Positions 1-37,257 of a stretch of DNA of 37,257 bases are shown here, piece after piece. The notes beneath the pieces were generated by a model. It had not been told where the DNA came from. It saw only the letters and a list, made by a program, of their open reading frames with translations, and made no database searches. The position numbers and the translations under genes are program-made. Origin of the DNA: a virus (taxonomy: Duplodnaviria > Heunggongvirae > Uroviricota > Caudoviricetes). Within the stretch, counting starts at the first letter, position 1, and each line of letters starts with the position of its first letter. The stretch is from the IMG/VR virus record IMGVR_UViG_2917849834_000002, one strand, 5' to 3'.

Positions 1-993
1 TTAACTCAATAACCAGACCAACATCACGATGATGGCGGTCAGCAATATCCACAGGCTGGGGCGCATGGCCATTTCTTGCATCGTGTTAATGAATGGCGTA
101 AAGGGATTGAGTAACGGTTGAATATCTCGCGGTTCAATCCCATTCACCCGCCGTTGATAAAGCTGGTTGAGGATATCCTCGGCCTGTGCGGAAGTCAGGG
201 CTGATTGCTGAGAAAGGCCATATTTTTGCTCAACATAGCTCGATAATACTGTCAACTCGCTGGCATCCAGTGGCTGTTTTAGCGCCATCTGAAGCGACTC
301 CAGCGTCGGTGTATTTTGCTGACTTAACACCTGGCGTGCCTGCAACCAGGTAACCAGGTGGGTAAACATTTTTGCCGGGATCAACTCACCATTTTTTACC
401 CCAGAAAGTTCCAGCATAGATTGCCAAATCTGTTTGCTGGGTTCTCCTGTTGCCGCCGCGAGTTTAGTCACCAGTTGCTTAAGCGTATTGTGTTCTGCCG
501 GTAGCAAAGGGCGATCGGTCGCCTGGCGCTGTTGCGGCTGCGGGATAACCATCTTCCCTTCCTGTAACAGCGTCAGGACGGTTTTTAATTGCTCCGGTGA
601 GAGTTGATTCAGCGGCGTCTGACCAAAGTTATGACGAATGTAATCTGTGACCGCCTGACGATTATTCCCCAGCCGTAAATACTCGCTCAATTGCGCCAAA
701 AGCTGGCGGACAGAATGGCTTTCTTGCGCGGCCAGTAAACGTTGTGCAAGGTTTTGTTCTGCGGCGGGGAAATTGCGTGAAAGTAACGGTGAATCGCCGG
801 GCAGACCGATGTCGTGCTTTATACCAGCCCACAATTCCGCGCTCTGCTGTTGCGTCAGCGAAGTCACTTTGGTTATCAAACTTTCCAGCACTGTACGTTG
901 CAAGCTGGATAAAGGCTGATTGCCTGCGCCAGACGACAGTTTATCCCCCTGACCCGGTGGTTGCCCAGGAGGGGCGGAAATTGGTTGTATCAT
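1..993 (-). CDS. flk: C-terminally membrane-anchored Q/P-rich protein, probable flagellar regulator Flk; likely host gene outside the prophage
   Basis: 330-aa ORF with stop at 1..3; N-terminal MIQPISAPPGQPPGQG, Gln/Leu-rich, single hydrophobic C-terminal anchor (WILLTAIIVMLVWLL). Identity to Flk is from memory of the family, not a search. Confidence 0.45.
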   Translation of the reverse strand: MIQPISAPPGQPPGQGDKLSSGAGNQPLSSLQRTVLESLITKVTSLTQQQSAELWAGIKHDIGLPGDSPLLSRNFPAAEQNLAQRLLAAQESHSVRQLLAQLSEYLRLGNNRQAVTDYIRHNFGQTPLNQLSPEQLKTVLTLLQEGKMVIPQPQQRQATDRPLLPAEHNTLKQLVTKLAAATGEPSKQIWQSMLELSGVKNGELIPAKMFTHLVTWLQARQVLSQQNTPTLESLQMALKQPLDASELTVLSSYVEQKYGLSQQSALTSAQAEDILNQLYQRRVNGIEPRDIQPLLNPFTPFINTMQEMAMRPSLWILLTAIIVMLVWLLS

Positions 994-1161
994 TACGTAT
1001 CCTTATACCTGAAATCATCGCAAGTATGCCTGGCCGCGAGATTATGGCACACTTGTCCGGTTAACTCTCGTTCTCATACAGGTACCACAAACGTGAAAAT
1101 CCTTGTTGATGAAAAAAGTGATGATTTAATTTATTGATATAAAAGGATTTGTATCAGCGTA

Positions 1162-1179
1162 TGTCCACGCAGTGACCAC
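1162..1179. repeat. Left copy of boundary repeat TGTCCACGCAGTGACCAC; candidate Int arm-type sites or att core
   Basis: 17/18 identical to 37230..37247; reverse complement holds two GTGGNCA units spaced about 11 bp, resembling the P2 Int arm-site consensus as I recall it. Confidence 0.5.
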
Positions 1180-1197
1180 ATTTTCGAGAGGTAGAGC

Positions 1198-1219
1198 AAG
1201 CCCGCAACATTGCGGGCTT
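1198..1219 (+). terminator. GC-rich hairpin (9-bp stem AAGCCCGCA / TGCGGGCTT) followed by TGTCTTAT
   Basis: Perfect inverted repeat just downstream of the methylase stop; T-rich tail only on the plus strand. Confidence 0.4.
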
Positions 1220-1223
1220 TGTC

Positions 1224-2015
1224 TTATGGTTCGATCGCCGTTTTGAGCCGTTGTGTTGCTACATCAAAATAATGATCACTGGTTTCTATACCAATAAATT
1301 TGCGTCCTGCTTTCAGTGCAGCCACACCCGTTGTCCCTGACCCCATAAAAGGATCAAGGACTGTTCCGCCACTATTCACAGTCCTGACCAGTTCCGCCAT
1401 TAGTTCTTCTGGTTTTCCGGTCGGGTGCATTTTCTTTGACGGGATAACCGGGTACGTCATGCAGCCGTCGAACGGTCCCGAAGGTGATTTATCTAAATGG
1501 CCTTTGCTGCCCCAGACGATGTATTCGCACTGGTGCCGGAAATACCCGGTATGTGGTGTTCGTGACCCCCTCCCTTTGTTCCACGCAATGATGCCGCGCC
1601 ATGTAAAGCCACTGGCCTGAAACGCATCGGTTAAAGCTGGTAGTTGTCGCCAGTCAGTAAATACCAGGGCATAACCGCCCGGCCTGACTGCGCGGTGTGC
1701 CTGTGCCATCCATAATTGTGTCCAGTAAGCCCACGAACGGGCGTCCATGTTTTCACCCGCGAACCCATCAAAGCGGTGAAGGTTCTCGCCGTTCAGATAT
1801 TTTGCATGGCTGCCCTGGTTGGTGCGTCCGGCCTTGTGTGTCGCACCCGAACTGTAAGGCGGGTCAGTAATTAAGGCATCAATGCTTTCTGGCTCAATCA
1901 GCGGCAATATTTCCAGCGCATTTCCACGACAGAGCGTGGCATTGTCAGTCTGGTAAATCTTAGTGTGTTCCGGTGTATGTACTGGCTGGTGCTGGATTGC
2001 GATCCCCACGGTCAT
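1224..2015 (-). CDS. DNA methyltransferase (N6-adenine or N4-cytosine, beta class)
   Basis: 263 aa; DPPY catalytic motif (ITDPPYSSG) N-terminal to the AdoMet motif DPFMGSGTTGVAA; 5' end overlapped by the com-like ORF. Confidence 0.85.
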   Translation of the reverse strand: MTVGIAIQHQPVHTPEHTKIYQTDNATLCRGNALEILPLIEPESIDALITDPPYSSGATHKAGRTNQGSHAKYLNGENLHRFDGFAGENMDARSWAYWTQLWMAQAHRAVRPGGYALVFTDWRQLPALTDAFQASGFTWRGIIAWNKGRGSRTPHTGYFRHQCEYIVWGSKGHLDKSPSGPFDGCMTYPVIPSKKMHPTGKPEELMAELVRTVNSGGTVLDPFMGSGTTGVAALKAGRKFIGIETSDHYFDVATQRLKTAIEP

Positions 2016-3378: not shown

Positions 3379-5076
3379 TCAGGCGATAAGGTCGCCGTAT
3401 TTTTCACGCAGACTCGTGGCCTGTTGGGCATCTGCGGCAAGTTCGCCGCTGTTCATCGGTGCGCCAGTGTTGCTGTGGGTGTGGTTTGCTGTATGTGTGG
3501 CCAGCAATTGAATCAGGTCCAGAATATCAGTCAGCAACGTCAGCAGGTTAAGCCCGGACTTTTCCCGCGAGCCGCTGCGACCAATAAACACTGTCGGGGC
3601 GGTAAACTCCAGACCGCCGTCCGCCCTGCATGTTCTGCGGCCTCCCACGTTTTCAGTCAGGTCGTGCTCAATCGTTGACGTTGCGCCTTTAAGTTTAGTC
3701 AGCAAATCCTGCGCCACCATCTGGATGTGTTCGCCGGCTGCGATCGCGTAATTGCCGGTAGTAAGGTGTTCTGTCTGGCCTGTCATCAGCTTGCTGGTAC
3801 CAAGAACACTGGTTATGTCGTTTGCCTGGACTGTTGTTGTTCTGGTTGTTGTTGTGCGTTCTTCCTGGTCGCTGTTAATGGTTCGCCTGGCAGAATGCTC
3901 CCTGATTTGCTGGTCGGTTTCCCTGTGCCAGCTTCCGTCAGTCGTGACACGCTGAAACACTTCTGCGCGCTGTTGCTGCAACTGTTCGCCGGGCTTTACA
4001 TCAGGCAGGTTATGTCCGGCAGGTAAGATTTGCCTGATGACAGGTTTATCCGGGCGGCCTTCAATACTGGATATTTCCACGATGGTGCCTGCCGGTGGGT
4101 AGGCAAAACATCCCGCCTCGCTACCAGCCATCGGGACAGGGAGCGGTACTGCCGGGTAAACAGGCGTATCGCTTTTGTCGTTGCCGTTCTCATCAAGCAG
4201 CTGCACGTCCACGGCGTAGCGTGGGCGGAAACTGTCGGCTACATCGCCCAGGGTGGCGGATTCCGTTGGTGCGACGACCCGCGCCAGTCTGGTGTGTAGT
4301 GTACCGCTGGCCAGTTCCGGAAACTGCGTTTCCATCTGTCTGCGCAATGGTGATTTGGAAACAGGGCTACCCGTGGCGGTGAGGCGCTCCCATGTCAGTG
4401 TCATTTTCTCGTTGTTGAGGGCTACACGGGTAATACGCCCGGCCGGAAGATTCACACCCGGCCGCACGGTTTCCATGAACATGATGTCGATGCTGTTTCC
4501 GCCGCTTTGCCCGAGTGTGTACTGTTGCGGAATATCGGGCATGGTAATGCTGGCAAACCGTGAATCAGCTGCGTTTCCCACAAATACAGAACCGTCCGGC
4601 ATGGGGTGCCAGACGTAATCGCTGATACTGAATGAGCGCCCCAGCTGGCTGAGTAACTGCGTCCCGCTGCCGCTGTGGGTGATGTAGGGAGTTGGTGTGC
4701 TGACATAATCCGCATCTGGCGTGATAAAAACGATACCGCTTTGTCGCCCCAGATTATCGAGCACATCCCGCAACGTCGGGTGTTGCATGGAGCAGGGGAA
4801 ATCAAAATCCAGCACAGCAGCTGCTTCACGGATAAAAAGGCGACGTGAGCCATTTTCGGCCGGTTGATCGCGTTCTATGTAGCCAGAGAAATAGCGCCAG
4901 GCCTCACCATTACGGCCGAGATCGATTTGCACCATTGCGCCGGCAAGGCTTTTTTCTGGTGACAGATTGTTAACAGAAACGAAGCCGCGACCGGCAGCAT
5001 TCAGGGTGAGAGCAAGGCTGATATCGGCAATTTCCACCTGTTCGCCATTGATCATGCAGCGTTGTATCAATTTCAT
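3379..5076 (-). CDS. Putative tail/baseplate hub protein (possibly gpD-like) with long C-terminal extension
   Basis: 565 aa, last gene of the late operon, ATGA-coupled to the upstream gene; N-terminal LALTLNAAGRGF and HPTLRDVLDNLG resemble gpD/Mu gp44 motifs from memory. Family assignment is weak. Confidence 0.35.
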   Translation of the reverse strand: MKLIQRCMINGEQVEIADISLALTLNAAGRGFVSVNNLSPEKSLAGAMVQIDLGRNGEAWRYFSGYIERDQPAENGSRRLFIREAAAVLDFDFPCSMQHPTLRDVLDNLGRQSGIVFITPDADYVSTPTPYITHSGSGTQLLSQLGRSFSISDYVWHPMPDGSVFVGNAADSRFASITMPDIPQQYTLGQSGGNSIDIMFMETVRPGVNLPAGRITRVALNNEKMTLTWERLTATGSPVSKSPLRRQMETQFPELASGTLHTRLARVVAPTESATLGDVADSFRPRYAVDVQLLDENGNDKSDTPVYPAVPLPVPMAGSEAGCFAYPPAGTIVEISSIEGRPDKPVIRQILPAGHNLPDVKPGEQLQQQRAEVFQRVTTDGSWHRETDQQIREHSARRTINSDQEERTTTTRTTTVQANDITSVLGTSKLMTGQTEHLTTGNYAIAAGEHIQMVAQDLLTKLKGATSTIEHDLTENVGGRRTCRADGGLEFTAPTVFIGRSGSREKSGLNLLTLLTDILDLIQLLATHTANHTHSNTGAPMNSGELAADAQQATSLREKYGDLIA

Positions 5077-22951: not shown

Positions 22952-24739
22952 ATGGCGTATTCTGATGAGGTGATTGCTGCTGCAAAATCGCTCTATCTGA
23001 AAAGACACACACCAAAAGAAATACAAAAAAAACTCGGACTGAACAGTCCGCGAATTGTTTATTACTGGGCGACAAAATTTGAGTGGTACACGCAGCTTAA
23101 TACTGAAGGCGTGGAGGATGTTATCGCCCGTCGTCTCGCTGTACTGGCGGAGCGTGATCATAAAACGCCGGAAGAACACGATGAACTCGATCGCCTGATT
23201 GGCCATCACGTCAAACTGATGTCGGTCAGGAACAAGCACACGGAACGAATGGCCGAGATTGAACGAATGGGAGCGGATATTCCCCAGTCTGGTCGTTATG
23301 GAAAAGAAGAACGCGGAGAAAAAGGTGCAGGTAAGAAAGAGCGCCCCCGCAAAGCTAATGACGTTTCCGGACTGACAGCGGAAAGTTTTGAGCCGTTTAC
23401 GAAAAAATTGTTTGCTTATCAGTTGCGCCTGCGTGAAAACAAATTCCGCCGTGTGCGCAACCTGCTTAAATCCCGCCAGATTGGGGCGACGTATTACTTC
23501 GCGTTTGAGGCATTTGAAGATGCAGTATTAACCGGCGACACACAGATATTTTTATCGGCATCAAAACGTCAGGCCGAAGTGTTCCGTACTTATATTGTAA
23601 AAATTGCACAAACAGAGTTTGGTATTCCCATTAAAGGCAATCCGGTTAAGTTAAGTAACCTGGCTGAACTGTATTTTCTGGCGACCAACAGTAACACAGC
23701 GCAGTCAAACAGCGGCCACCTGTATATTGATGAATACCTGTGGATCCCCGGTTTTCGCCGTCTCAATGAAGTGGCATCAGGGATGGCCACCCATAAACAC
23801 TGGCGCATTACCTATTTCTCCACGCCGTCATCCAAAACACACCAGGGTTACCCGTTCTGGTCTGGCGATGAATGGCGCAAAGGCGATCCGAAACGAAAAG
23901 GGGTTGAGTTTCCGTCCTTTGATGAGCTGCGCGATGGTGGGCGTGAATGTCCGGATGGTCAGTGGCGCTATGTGGTTACGCTGGAAGATGCTATTGCCGG
24001 CGGTTTTAACCTTGCTGACATCAACGAGCTGCGCGAGCGATACAACGAAACAGCGTTCAATATGCTGTTTATGTGCGTGTTTGTGGATGACAAAGAGAGC
24101 GTCTTTAAATTCGATGATCTTGTGCGTTGTGGTGTTGATGTCAGTACGTGGGAGGATTATCACCCGGAAGAGTCCATGCCATTTGGTAACCGTGAGGTGT
24201 GGGGCGGCTTTGACCCGGCGCGCTCCGGCGATAACGCCACATTTGTTGTGCTGGCACCGCCGCTGGTTGCGGCAGAACGATTCCGCGTGCTGGAAAAACA
24301 CCACTGGCGCAGCATGTCATTCCAGTTTATGGCAGAGCGTATCCGCAGCATTAAGGCGCGCTATAACATGACGTTTATCGGCATTGACGTCACCGGTCTT
24401 GGTTACGGTGTCTTTGAGCTGGTTCAGGGATTTGCCCGCCGTGAAACAGTGGCCATTCATTACAGCGTGGAATCCAAAAACCGCCTGGTGATGAAGATGC
24501 TGGATCTGATTTACGCCAACCGTATTGAGTGGGATGAGGAAGCCACGGATATTCCGGCATCGTTCCTGGCCATTCGTCAGGAATCCACCAACAGCGGCAA
24601 TAAAGTCACTTTCACCGCCGAACGTAGCGAAGAAACCGGGCACGCTGACATCTTCTTTGCCATAGCTCATGCCGCAAGTAATGAACCCCTGAACTATAAG
24701 CACAAGCGCAAATCAACATGGATCCTGTCAGATGAGTAA
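22952..24739 (+). CDS. P: Terminase large (ATPase) subunit, gpP-like
   Basis: 595 aa; Walker A-like KSRQIGATYYF; overlaps the portal gene start by 8 nt. Confidence 0.9.
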   Translation: MAYSDEVIAAAKSLYLKRHTPKEIQKKLGLNSPRIVYYWATKFEWYTQLNTEGVEDVIARRLAVLAERDHKTPEEHDELDRLIGHHVKLMSVRNKHTERMAEIERMGADIPQSGRYGKEERGEKGAGKKERPRKANDVSGLTAESFEPFTKKLFAYQLRLRENKFRRVRNLLKSRQIGATYYFAFEAFEDAVLTGDTQIFLSASKRQAEVFRTYIVKIAQTEFGIPIKGNPVKLSNLAELYFLATNSNTAQSNSGHLYIDEYLWIPGFRRLNEVASGMATHKHWRITYFSTPSSKTHQGYPFWSGDEWRKGDPKRKGVEFPSFDELRDGGRECPDGQWRYVVTLEDAIAGGFNLADINELRERYNETAFNMLFMCVFVDDKESVFKFDDLVRCGVDVSTWEDYHPEESMPFGNREVWGGFDPARSGDNATFVVLAPPLVAAERFRVLEKHHWRSMSFQFMAERIRSIKARYNMTFIGIDVTGLGYGVFELVQGFARRETVAIHYSVESKNRLVMKMLDLIYANRIEWDEEATDIPASFLAIRQESTNSGNKVTFTAERSEETGHADIFFAIAHAASNEPLNYKHKRKSTWILSDE

Positions 24740-25766
24740 AAAGAAAAAATACCCCGTGTTACACGATGGCGTAGCAAAAAAAACAGCCAGCAAAATGACG
24801 TTTATTGAATTTGGTGACCCGGAACCGGTCGCTGCATGGGGCTGTTATTACGGCTCGCTCTGGGATGGTTATAACGGCTGGTACACGCCGCCCATTGAGC
24901 GCATGGATCTCGCTATGTTGGCCAATATCGCACCGTATCACGGCGCGGTACTGCGTGCACGCGTCAATATGATCATGCAGGGTTTTCGTGGGGGTGGTGG
25001 TATGACACACGCCGCCATGGCGGCAGCGGTGACCAATCTGCTGATATTCGGGGATATGGGACTGCTTAAAGTGCGCAATGGCTTCGGGCGGGTGGTGCGC
25101 CTGCATACGTTGCCTTCTCTGTACCTGCGGCGTAACAACGAGGGTGGCACGGTGATTGTGCAGGCAGCACTGGAAGATCTCGTTTACCCGCCAGGCGAAG
25201 TGGTGTTCGTGGCTATTTATGACCCGCAACAGCAGGTTTACGGTGTTCCGGATTATATCCACGGGATGGAATCCGCCATGCTGAATGTGGATGCCACCCG
25301 CTTTCGCCGCAAGTATTACAAGAACGGCGCACATCTTGGTTATATCCTGTATTCCACTGACCCGGACATGGACCCCGAGCTCGAGGCGGAATTCCGTAAA
25401 AAGATAGAGGCGTCAAAAGGGGCGGGCAATTTTAAATCCATGTTTATCAATATACCTGGCGGAGACAAAGAAGGCGTTAAGGTGATCCCTATCGGGGATT
25501 CAGGTACAAAAGATGAGTTCCTGAATATAAAAACCATCAGTGCCCAGGATCAGCTCGTTGCACACCGTTTTCCACCCGGACTTGCCGGCATCATTCCCGC
25601 AAATACGGCCGGGCTTGGTGATCCGCTGAAATCCCGCGAGGCATATTACAGAGATGAGGTTATTCCGATGCGCCGCCTGATTATGGAGGGAATCAACAGT
25701 GACCCGGATATCAGGCGACTGGGGGAGGTGAAATTTATTCTTGATTTTGATGAACCCCGGGAGTGA
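24732..25766 (+). CDS. Q: Portal protein, gpQ-like
   Basis: 344 aa, the size of P2 gpQ; directly downstream of the large terminase. Confidence 0.85.
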   Translation: MSKKKKYPVLHDGVAKKTASKMTFIEFGDPEPVAAWGCYYGSLWDGYNGWYTPPIERMDLAMLANIAPYHGAVLRARVNMIMQGFRGGGGMTHAAMAAAVTNLLIFGDMGLLKVRNGFGRVVRLHTLPSLYLRRNNEGGTVIVQAALEDLVYPPGEVVFVAIYDPQQQVYGVPDYIHGMESAMLNVDATRFRRKYYKNGAHLGYILYSTDPDMDPELEAEFRKKIEASKGAGNFKSMFINIPGGDKEGVKVIPIGDSGTKDEFLNIKTISAQDQLVAHRFPPGLAGIIPANTAGLGDPLKSREAYYRDEVIPMRRLIMEGINSDPDIRRLGEVKFILDFDEPRE

Positions 25767-35431: not shown

Positions 35432-35719
35432 TCAAAGCCCCAACCACAGCAACCATGCCTCTCGTTGTTCTTTCGGCTGATTAAAAAATGCCTTGCGCAT
35501 ACCCGCATTAAACGCTGGCAGATATATCCAGTTTTCTGATGCTCGCGTCTTCACTGAACCTGGCTTCGTGAAATCAACCGTTGGTAGCTTTGCGGCGTCA
35601 ATCATGGTTCTGACGGTTGATTCTTTGCGGCCAATCATCTTGGCAAATAGTTGATATGGCACCGCTTCAAGTGGATATGGTGCTACCTGAATGAACCCCT
35701 CAAGCTCTGATTCGCTCAT
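35432..35719 (-). CDS. cox: Cox-like excisionase / early regulator
   Basis: 95 aa; VPYQLFAKMIGRKESTVRTMIDAAKLP ... YLPAFNAG ... WLLWLGL parallels P2 Cox motifs from memory; first gene divergent from C. Confidence 0.75.
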   Translation of the reverse strand: MSESELEGFIQVAPYPLEAVPYQLFAKMIGRKESTVRTMIDAAKLPTVDFTKPGSVKTRASENWIYLPAFNAGMRKAFFNQPKEQREAWLLWLGL

Positions 35720-35743: not shown

Positions 35744-35786
35744 AAATGGCCCAAAATGGCTTATATAGGCTTATTTTGGCTATTTG
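35744..35786. promoter_or_regulatory. Immunity operator/promoter region with tandem direct repeats
   Basis: AAATGGC cc AAAATGGC then three abutting repeats GGCTTATAT / GGCTTATTTT / GGCTATTTG between the divergent cox and C starts. Confidence 0.5.
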
Positions 35787-35835
35787 AATGTTTTTGTATT
35801 ACATGTAACCCAATAGCGTGGAGTTTAGATCACAT

Positions 35836-36156
35836 ATGATCCATAAATCAAGCCTTGGAGAAAAACTTCGCCTGATTCGAGAGGCAGAGGGATTGTCACG
35901 TAGAGAGATGGGAGAGGTGACAGGGGTATCTCAAAACAATCTCAAAAATTATGAAATATTGGGAAGAATGATACCTGGAGAAACGTTACTCCTGATTTTG
36001 AATCATCCTCGTTTTCGGAAGTATTCGGATTGGGTGATGTTTAATCAAACTAATGCTGCGACGGGGCAGATTGCTCCGCCTCTCTCTCTTGATGGCTTCT
36101 TCGATTCGGAAGGCGATCAGGTTTCAACCGAAACAAACCAAAAATCACCCCACTGA
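35836..36156 (+). CDS. C: Immunity repressor, P2 C-like (HTH)
   Basis: 106 aa from ATG at 35836; HTH LSRREMGEVTGVSQNNLKNYE and C-terminal FNQTNAATGQIAPPL resemble P2 C from memory. Confidence 0.75.
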   Translation: MIHKSSLGEKLRLIREAEGLSRREMGEVTGVSQNNLKNYEILGRMIPGETLLLILNHPRFRKYSDWVMFNQTNAATGQIAPPLSLDGFFDSEGDQVSTETNQKSPH

Positions 36157-36252: not shown

Positions 36253-37257
36253 ATGTCGATTAAGAAGCTCGAAGATGGTCGTTATTTGCTGGACATCAGG
36301 CCGAACGGACGCAAGGGAAAGCGCGTGCGTAAGGTATTTGACAAAAAATCGGTAGCGGTGGCCACTGAACGCTACATCATGGCGAACGCTGAAAAGCGGG
36401 AATATATACAGGGCTACCGTGATCGTCGAACGCTAAATGATTTGCTTGAGTTGTGGTGGATGTATCACGGCCAGCACAGGCGTAAGGCGGAAGAAGACCG
36501 AAAACAACTGCGCAACATAATCAATGAGCTTGGCGCTGATATGCAGGCTGTGGATCTTGATAAGCTGAAAATTATCGCGTGGCGTTCTCAAAAGATAGCT
36601 GATGGATTGAAACCGTCATCTGCTAACAGATACATGAATCGGTTATCCGGAATGTTTACAGTACTGAAGAAAATAGGCCTCTGGGATGCAGAGCATCCGG
36701 TAAGGGGGATTTCTATTCTTTATGTATCCCCACGAGAAATGGCTTTCCTGTCCCGGAAGGAAGTGGCGTTATTGCTCGATACACTGGAGGGCGATTACTG
36801 GCGTGTTGCGCTTTTGTGTTTAAGCACGGGAGCGCGCTGGAGTGAAGCCTGTAAGCTCCGTGGTGAACAGATAGTTCATAACCGTGTAACGTTTCTCGAA
36901 ACCAAAAATGGCCGAAAGAGAACAGTGCCAATTTCGCAGGCGGTTTGTGAGGCGATCAAAACCAGAGAAACAGGCGGCTTGTTTGAGGTGAAGTACCGGG
37001 AATTCTGCTTGGCGCTGAAAAGAGTTAAGCCCGATTTGCCAAAAGGCCAGGCTGCACATGTGCTGCGGCATACGTTCGCCAGCCATTTTGTGATGAACGG
37101 AGGAAACATTATTGCGCTTCAGAAGATTCTTGGCCACGCAACCATTCAGCAAACAATGGCATATGCACATTTTGCACCGGATTACCTGCAGGATGCGGTG
37201 GCCCTTAATCCGCTGAAAGGTGGCGTGAGTGTCCACGCAGTGTCCACGGGGGATTAA
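36253..37257 (+). CDS. int: Tyrosine integrase, P2 Int-like
   Basis: 334 aa from ATG at 36253; N-terminal MSIKKLEDGRYLLDIRPNGRKGKRVRKVFDKK and C-terminal HVLRHTFASHF ... MAYAHFAP closely parallel P2 Int as I recall it. Confidence 0.9.
   Translation: MSIKKLEDGRYLLDIRPNGRKGKRVRKVFDKKSVAVATERYIMANAEKREYIQGYRDRRTLNDLLELWWMYHGQHRRKAEEDRKQLRNIINELGADMQAVDLDKLKIIAWRSQKIADGLKPSSANRYMNRLSGMFTVLKKIGLWDAEHPVRGISILYVSPREMAFLSRKEVALLLDTLEGDYWRVALLCLSTGARWSEACKLRGEQIVHNRVTFLETKNGRKRTVPISQAVCEAIKTRETGGLFEVKYREFCLALKRVKPDLPKGQAAHVLRHTFASHFVMNGGNIIALQKILGHATIQQTMAYAHFAPDYLQDAVALNPLKGGVSVHAVSTGD
37230..37247. repeat. Right copy of boundary repeat TGTCCACGCAGTGTCCAC inside the int 3' end
   Basis: 17/18 identical to 1162..1179; two tandem GTGTCCAC units. 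Confidence 0.5.

Follow-up and report, generated by a model that had tools for sequence, protein, structure and literature searches.

What part of a phage's recombination machinery does a direct repeat at its two prophage ends represent? The window, the whole stretch of 37,257 nucleotides analysed here (IMG/VR record IMGVR_UViG_2917849834_000002), contains TGTCCACGCAGTGACCAC at 1162-1179 and TGTCCACGCAGTGTCCAC at 37230-37247, both on the + strand and in direct orientation, identical at 17 of 18 positions and 36,068 bp apart. An earlier note, made from the sequence alone, had described this 17/18 match about 36 kb apart with two GTGGNCA-like units in each copy, and had offered two readings: arm-type sites of a P2 integrase, or a duplicated att core. 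The match and its units are confirmed, with unit starts spaced 11 bp apart. Below, we discuss sequence comparisons indicating that the 18-mers are very probably the two arm-type sites at which a P2-type heterobivalent tyrosine integrase binds, and that the duplicated junction sequence is a separate 20-bp core, AAAATCCTTGTTGATGAAAA, in the 5' end of host pdxB.

The prophage, its host and its integrase

Bases 1-993 of the window encode Flk on the minus strand, and the rest is a P2-like prophage whose gene content comprises a methylase, com, hok, ogr, tail and head genes, a replication gene, cox, a C-type repressor and int (Table 1). Exact-protein matches place both flk and int on contig PDIA01000054.1 of GCA_004745155.1, one of a set of 16 isolates of Escherichia cryptic clade II, collected in Hong Kong from sediments of the intertidal zone (PMC6639607). 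The host is not E. coli proper, its flk region being 89% identical to that of K-12. An IS110-family transposase gene is found on the same contig past yfcJ (L075 4862-5993), between yfcJ and the fabB position of prophage-free sister strains; with this insertion near the locus, the lysogen differs from its prophage-free sisters by a second insertion.

The prophage is a P88/PhiSM-like phage (Xuanwuvirus) integrated in the 5' end of pdxB. Its integrase is near-identical to those of this group, its core in the pdxB 5' end contains ATCCTTGTTGATGAAAA, and it supplies a TTG start to the gene. At the DNA level, int is 96-98% identical to PhiSM, P88_4B11 and PhiR44_2 (Escherichia phage), and 91% identical to Chuche. 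Compared with P2 Int, the protein is 49% identical overall and 67% identical (30 of 45 residues) across the N-terminus, the arm-binding domain of P2-type integrases. This domain keeps Y11, D14 and R16, which we infer to be the Y/D/R set put forward as distinguishing arm recognition of the P2 type from that of the 186 type (PMC3448106).

A survey of more distant Int loci covered integrated copies, with the partner dyad out of its reach. A dyad near the int stop is found only in closer relatives (L011-L016, L024), and none was found near the int stop for integrases at ~40% identity, which presumably have other arm motifs. In Escherichia sp. MOD1-EC7003 (L010 3960-4380), an integrase sharing 82% identity over residues 1-321 departs in its C-terminal tail and lacks the TGTCCAC dyad. 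Two GGTTACA-N-GGTTACA dyads lie downstream of it (4271-4289 and 4356-4375), ~85 bp apart with an A/T-rich stretch between them, and may reflect a swapped arm specificity or belong to a neighbouring element.

Table 1. Coordinates of the features discussed, in the window and in the P2 genome record
Feature	Sequence	Position	Strand	Basis or remark
flk	window	1..993	-	330-aa ORF; matches annotated flk in E. coli; Pfam Flk_N; left host flank of the prophage
native pdxB GTG start, cut off from the rest of the gene	window	1093..1095	+	aligns with the annotated K-12 pdxB start
att core AAAATCCTTGTTGATGAAAA, flk-side copy of the true duplicated junction sequence	window	1096..1115	+	corresponds to pdxB codons 2-8
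int-distal arm of attP ('P arm' in P2 naming)	window	1116..1188	+	conserved non-coding phage module, 73 bp
IHF consensus site TATCAATAAATTA (predicted)	window	1127..1139	-	between core and int-distal dyad
int-distal arm-type Int-binding dyad TGTCCAC-GCAG-TGACCAC (predicted)	window	1162..1179	+	gap-free alignment to the P2 'Int P arm' feature
intrinsic-terminator-like hairpin	window	1198..1219	+	9-bp stem followed by TGTCTTATGG; just outside the arm; kept in Chuche attP
DNA methyltransferase	window	1224..2015	-	Pfam N6_N4_Mtase; first cargo gene inside the prophage, followed by com and hok
cox, excision directionality factor and Pc repressor	window	35432..35719	-	Pfam Phage_Cox, E = 1.3e-22
C-type immunity repressor (HTH)	window	35818..36156	+	Pfam HTH_31 and HTH_3; repressor annotation in related phages
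int, P2-type heterobivalent tyrosine integrase, 334 aa	window	36253..37257	+	Pfam Int_N and Phage_integrase; stop codon is the window's last triplet
int-proximal arm-type dyad TGTCCAC-GCAG-TGTCCAC (predicted)	window	37230..37247	+	in int codons 326-332; corresponds to P2 "Int P' arm"
Int P arm	P2 NC_001895	24293-24320		RefSeq protein_bind feature
IHF	P2 NC_001895	24324-24357		RefSeq protein_bind feature
Int core	P2 NC_001895	24356-24383		RefSeq protein_bind feature
Cox	P2 NC_001895	24399-24472		RefSeq protein_bind feature
Int P' arm	P2 NC_001895	24470-24496		RefSeq protein_bind feature; overlaps the 3' end of P2 int (24462-25475)

The 18-mers correspond to the annotated arm sites of P2

Each 18-mer is composed of the heptamers TGTCCAC and TG(A/T)CCAC, which read GTGG(A/T)CA on the reverse complement: TGTGGTCA and CGTGGACA at 1162-1179, and CGTGGACA twice at 37230-37247. 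When up to three mismatches are allowed, these two places are the only matches to the 18-mer on either strand of the window, where 0.03 are expected from 100 dinucleotide shuffles, none of which reached two or more matches. Both dyads fit the published P2-type arm consensus tgTGGaCa (PMC3448106), so that each side of the core has at least two direct repeats of this form.

The P2 record provides experimentally defined sites for comparison. On the reverse complement, its Int P arm reads cGTCCACaCAtTGACCAC and its Int P' arm reads TGTCCACACAGTGTCCAC. The P arm, cGTCCAC-ACAT-TGACCAC-AT, aligns with tGTCCAC-GCAG-TGACCAC-AT at window positions 1162-1181 (window's strand), and the P' arm, TGTCCAC-ACAG-TGTCCAC, aligns with TGTCCAC-GCAG-TGTCCAC at 37230-37247. 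The lone A/T mismatch between the 18-mers of the window is conserved in P2, where it likewise distinguishes the two arms, and the positions of the sites also correspond, including one dyad that overlaps the 3' end of int. Because the dyads align with the P2 Int P arm and P' arm features and fit tgTGGaCa, we read both 18-mers as putative arm sites, and the P2 arm-site reading of the earlier note is supported. The right 18-mer falls within the final int codons, which encode S-V-H-A-V-S-T-G-D-stop. Natural variation among close relatives leaves the heptamers untouched and affects the 4-nt spacer, which is GCAT in Chuche and GCAA in P88_4B11; the Chuche spacer change also swaps an Int residue from Val to Leu.

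The dyads might instead be sites of another phage protein, either Cox or the C repressor, both of which, in P2-like phages, also bind short direct repeats phased at about one helical turn (PMC3936717). This is improbable, as the P2 record gives the corresponding positions to Int and a separate region to Cox, and the Cox-box consensus TTAAA(G/C)NC(A/C) (PMC3936717) is unrelated to the dyad. Moreover, the Pe/Pc switch region, to which C and Cox have to bind, contains no dyad, and the dyads are conserved across heteroimmune phages with differing C and Cox specificities (PMC3448106).

Architecture and conservation of attP

In the free-phage attP of Chuche and P88_4B11, the order is dyad, arm, core, arm, dyad, and both 18-mers are found together, ~260 bp apart. 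An attP rebuilt from the window ends around one core is 375 bp long and collinear with that of Chuche. It runs from the int 3' end with TGTCCAC-N4-TGTCCAC through 192 bp to the core AAAATCCTTGTTGATGAAAA, and on through 46 bp containing the IHF site to TGTCCAC-N4-TGACCAC. The rebuilt site holds exactly four heptamers, two on each side, and no others at up to one mismatch. The two dyads, in direct orientation, flank the core within one attP and are parted to opposite prophage ends on integration. The predicted IHF site between the core and the int-distal dyad is an exact match to WATCAANNNNTTR, of which the window has three (1.26 expected), and the block containing it is homologous to the annotated IHF site of P2.

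The int-distal arm is conserved as a module. In an alignment of the window, an E. coli lysogen, Chuche, P88_4B11, P2 and a P2-like phage with another core (alignment A1), the invariant columns cluster in a TGA-ATAAA-GGATTT block and in the dyad (GTCCAC..A..G-CCACAT), while the regions around the core show no relationship. Among viral contigs, a scan for GTCCAC-N4-TGACCACAT returned 122 matches, 102 of which have an IHF-type block within 70 nt, making the dyad specific to an attP context rather than a general genomic motif. These dyads adjoin many different cores, including the P2 locI type, the pdxB type and several others. A partner dyad lies within 420 nt in one of the 122 matches, most of which are integrated prophage predictions. 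Among 5,426 complete E. coli genomes, the 73-bp arm is present in 341 and int in 308, and the arm matches include nine plasmid places. Lysogens with other cargo, as well as P88_4B11 (L003 4290-4400), diverge directly past ATTTTCGAG, at ~1188; with similarity lost at this point, the dyad marks the outer edge of the conserved attP.

A chance match or a common genomic motif, the latter named by the earlier note as something that would refute its proposal, would mean that the right copy is the conserved C-terminal tail of the integrase (SVHxVST) and that the left copy resembles it by accident. The tail SVH(A/T)VST is indeed conserved between the window Int and P2 Int, and single heptamers are not enriched in the window (12 vs 9.2 +/- 3.0 simulated). 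However, the phased dyad G[AT]CCAC-N4-TG[AT]CCAC, with an expectation of 0.013, occurs exactly twice in the window, at the two 18-mers, both in attP arms. The left copy is non-coding and yet conserved from P2 to P88-like phages, keeping its position relative to the IHF block while the cores differ. In the P2-like record OU784549, an extra comparator with a different Int C-terminus and core (the curated sites being those of NC_001895), the int stop precedes the int-proximal dyad, which is therefore conserved without coding constraint. Coincidence is therefore barely credible as an explanation. Part of the conservation of the int-proximal dyad in the window could nonetheless reflect protein constraint, the dyad being coding sequence.

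Cargo beside the int-distal arm is variable, and the methylase-linked version is found in 78 of the 5,426 E. coli genomes vs 341 for the arm; the interval from attP to ogr looks like a moron hot spot. Transcription that starts at the orphaned pdxB promoter and would otherwise enter the prophage, or that runs out of int in the circular form, could be halted by the terminator-like hairpin just outside the arm; no promoter was found in a scan of 950-1300. A copy of the core and int-distal arm is also located on the 142-kb E. coli ETEC plasmid NZ_LR883008.1 (L083 3001-3070), beside a truncated topoisomerase-repeat gene; after it come TagO-like, hok and ogr genes, a truncated tail gene and a group II intron. 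The plasmid copy is the decayed end of a prophage at a secondary site. For PhiSM, a secondary site (traF) has been reported in C. rodentium (PMC6456863).

The prophage junction lies in the start of pdxB

Empty sites are available on three contigs of the same host lineage, Escherichia cryptic clade II (L073, L074 and L076), that encode an identical Flk protein, lack the prophage and carry pdxB divergent from flk. Up to base 1115 the window differs from these sites by six mismatches in 1,095 nt; from 1116 identity is no better than chance. Comparison with K-12 places the break point likewise at 1115/1116. The pdxB-side junction is found on the window's own contig (L066, int identical at 1005/1005 positions), where the int stop is followed by 182 nt of phage DNA, AAAATCCTTGTTGATGAAAA and host pdxB, the latter with seven mismatches to the empty site in 1,100 nt. 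This second core copy corresponds to window-equivalent positions 37440-37459, 183 nt past the right end of the window.

The sequence AAAATCCTTGTTGATGAAAA occurs unchanged in attB (both in the same host lineage and in K-12), attR (L066 and L008), attP of Chuche and the window. Being common to attB, attL, attR and attP, it is the core, and it includes the 17-bp core ATCCTTGTTGATGAAAA of PhiSM, which was mapped experimentally in E. coli K-12 (PMC6456863). Integration leaves a residual 14-codon ORF, VKILVDEKSDDLIY (window 1093-1137), headed by the orphaned pdxB start and with its stop codon within the IHF consensus. P88_4B11 (L003 4204-4223) has a one-base core variant, GTTGAGGAAAA instead of GTTGATGAAAA, and its sequence from core to IHF block has diverged further; this suggests that the overlap region has drifted or that the record stems from a junction at an attB differing slightly.

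The idea that the 18-mers are themselves the duplicated att core, the strand-exchange sequence of attP and attB marking the exact prophage ends, draws on their being direct repeats near both ends with the right copy at the int 3' end, as in some phages, but it retains next to no probability, and the comparisons with empty sites and free phages refute it: attB lacks the 18-mer both in the same host lineage and in K-12, host homology stops at 1115, 46 nt to the left of the first copy, so that both copies lie inside phage DNA, the sequence common to attB, attP, attL and attR at the homology break is the 20-mer at 1096-1115, free phages hold both 18-mers in one attP, where a single crossover core cannot occur twice, and the experimentally mapped PhiSM core is a different sequence.

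The empty-site comparison, which the earlier note had put forward as a check, thus excludes its second reading and locates the junction inside the range it had given for the left end (1090..1180). Its placement of the methylase, com and hok genes inside the prophage also holds, as the free phage Chuche has the same genes beside the same attP; the methylase gene set is likewise found in the E. coli lysogen HD12481. Its description of the 18-mer as a boundary repeat matching the int 3' end stands in part: the match with the int 3' end is real, but the boundary repeat is the 20-bp core, whose right copy is outside the window.

The int-proximal arm and the replacement start of pdxB

The int-proximal arm of the phage carries AAGGAG-N7-TTG TCA GAG ACT GAA AAA GGG TTA, in frame with the pdxB core. 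This element is located at L066 4120-4210 (window-equivalent ~37370-37460, past the right end) and, in a second lysogen contig, at L008 2500-2560. PdxB is called as a protein of 385 residues (MSETEKGL-KILVDEN...) in the window's own contig and in E. coli lysogens, vs 378 residues at empty sites. A phage-supplied pdxB start and the prototrophy of lysogens have already been described for PhiSM (PMC6456863).

Clear P2-type Cox boxes were not found in the int-proximal arm, either with the P2 consensus or among k-mers common to the Pe/Pc switch and the arm. Two one-mismatch matches to the consensus are present in the 182 nt; the prophage does carry a Cox-family gene, and the consensus, being that of P2, may not represent the specificity of this Cox. 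One 11-mer, TGAATGTTTTT, is shared between the Pe/Pc switch, where it lies between cox and C (35785-35795), and the int-proximal arm (L066 4100-4110), with ~0.01 matches of this kind expected by chance between two stretches so short. This 11-mer may be bound by Cox or C, or may represent promoter elements. A more speculative and unlikely proposal is that the long int-proximal arm doubles as a recombination arm, with Int and Cox sites, and as the sole source of promoter, ribosome-binding site and start for host pdxB in lysogens, with TGAATGTTTTT as a common regulator site. If true, the integration or excision state would be coupled to vitamin B6 synthesis, through Int or Cox occupying the arm or through transcription running on from int.

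Comparison with known systems

The arrangement shares most of its features with P2. In both phages, direct heptamer pairs of the form tgTGGaCa flank the core, phased at 11 bp, the int-distal dyad has TGACCAC as its second unit, and an IHF site is located between this dyad and the core. Both also carry a Cox-family gene and an Int with a conserved N-terminus, and in both the int-proximal dyad is embedded in the 3' codons of int, the tails reading SVHTVST in P2 and SVHAVST in the window. Several differences set the two apart. The window core corresponds to pdxB codons 2-8 and is unrelated to the P2 core AAAAAATAAGCCCGTGTAAGGGAGATT, the distance from core to dyad in the int-proximal arm is ~192 nt compared with ~86 nt in P2, and this arm also equips pdxB with a replacement ribosome-binding site and a TTG start. 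The modest overall Int identity and the lack of clear P2-type Cox boxes further distinguish the window phage.

The closest relatives are PhiSM of Citrobacter rodentium (Shae_phiSM) and P88/P88_4B11 (Xuanwuvirus), which share 96-97% int DNA identity, the core in the pdxB 5' end, the phage-borne AAGGAG-N7-TTG leading into pdxB and the same arm sequences. Unlike these phages, the window phage resides in Escherichia cryptic clade II, and unlike P88_4B11, it carries methylase-com-hok as cargo beside the int-distal arm. The paper on PhiSM maps the 17-bp core and does not mention arm sites, IHF, the integrase or Cox (PMC6456863).

A broader parallel is found in lambda, whose attP contains the P1, P2 and P'1-3 arm sites and the H1, H2 and H' IHF sites. 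There too, a heterobivalent integrase bridges arm-type and core-type sites via IHF bends, and the arm sites are parted to opposite prophage ends after integration. Lambda differs in having five arm sites in another arrangement, three IHF sites, and Xis and Fis sites, and its arm consensus and Int N-domain sequence are distinct from those of the window phage.

A model for integration and excision

The model starts from what the sequences show: the anatomy of the dyads, the precise site of the junction, homology to the sites annotated in P2, and how these elements are conserved. On entry into the matching 20 bp at the start of host pdxB, attP was split at the core, which left one dyad at each prophage end, 36 kb apart. 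Following the P2 and lambda paradigm, Int would use its N-terminal domains to bind the four heptamers, while its core-binding and catalytic domains would bind the core. IHF may bend the short arm at its predicted site, allowing arm-bound Int to reach the core and form an intasome. In excision, the flk-side junction (core, IHF site and dyad 1162-1179) would synapse with the pdxB-side junction (dyad 37230-37247, long arm and core). By analogy with the same systems, Cox would act on the long int-proximal arm and set the directionality of excision.

Implications

For annotation, the left junction of the prophage is fixed at 1096-1115, inside the pdxB start, and the right junction lies ~183 nt beyond the window. 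The 18-mers can be labelled as predicted integrase arm sites rather than as att core. The assignment of arms for the P88/PhiSM-like group is an addition based on homology and not a discovery, and the arrangement is textbook, ordinary biology that leaves current understanding unchanged. Its value is that the modular attP design of the P2 family, with a conserved arm and IHF module and interchangeable cores, is seen in a new host lineage, Escherichia cryptic clade II.
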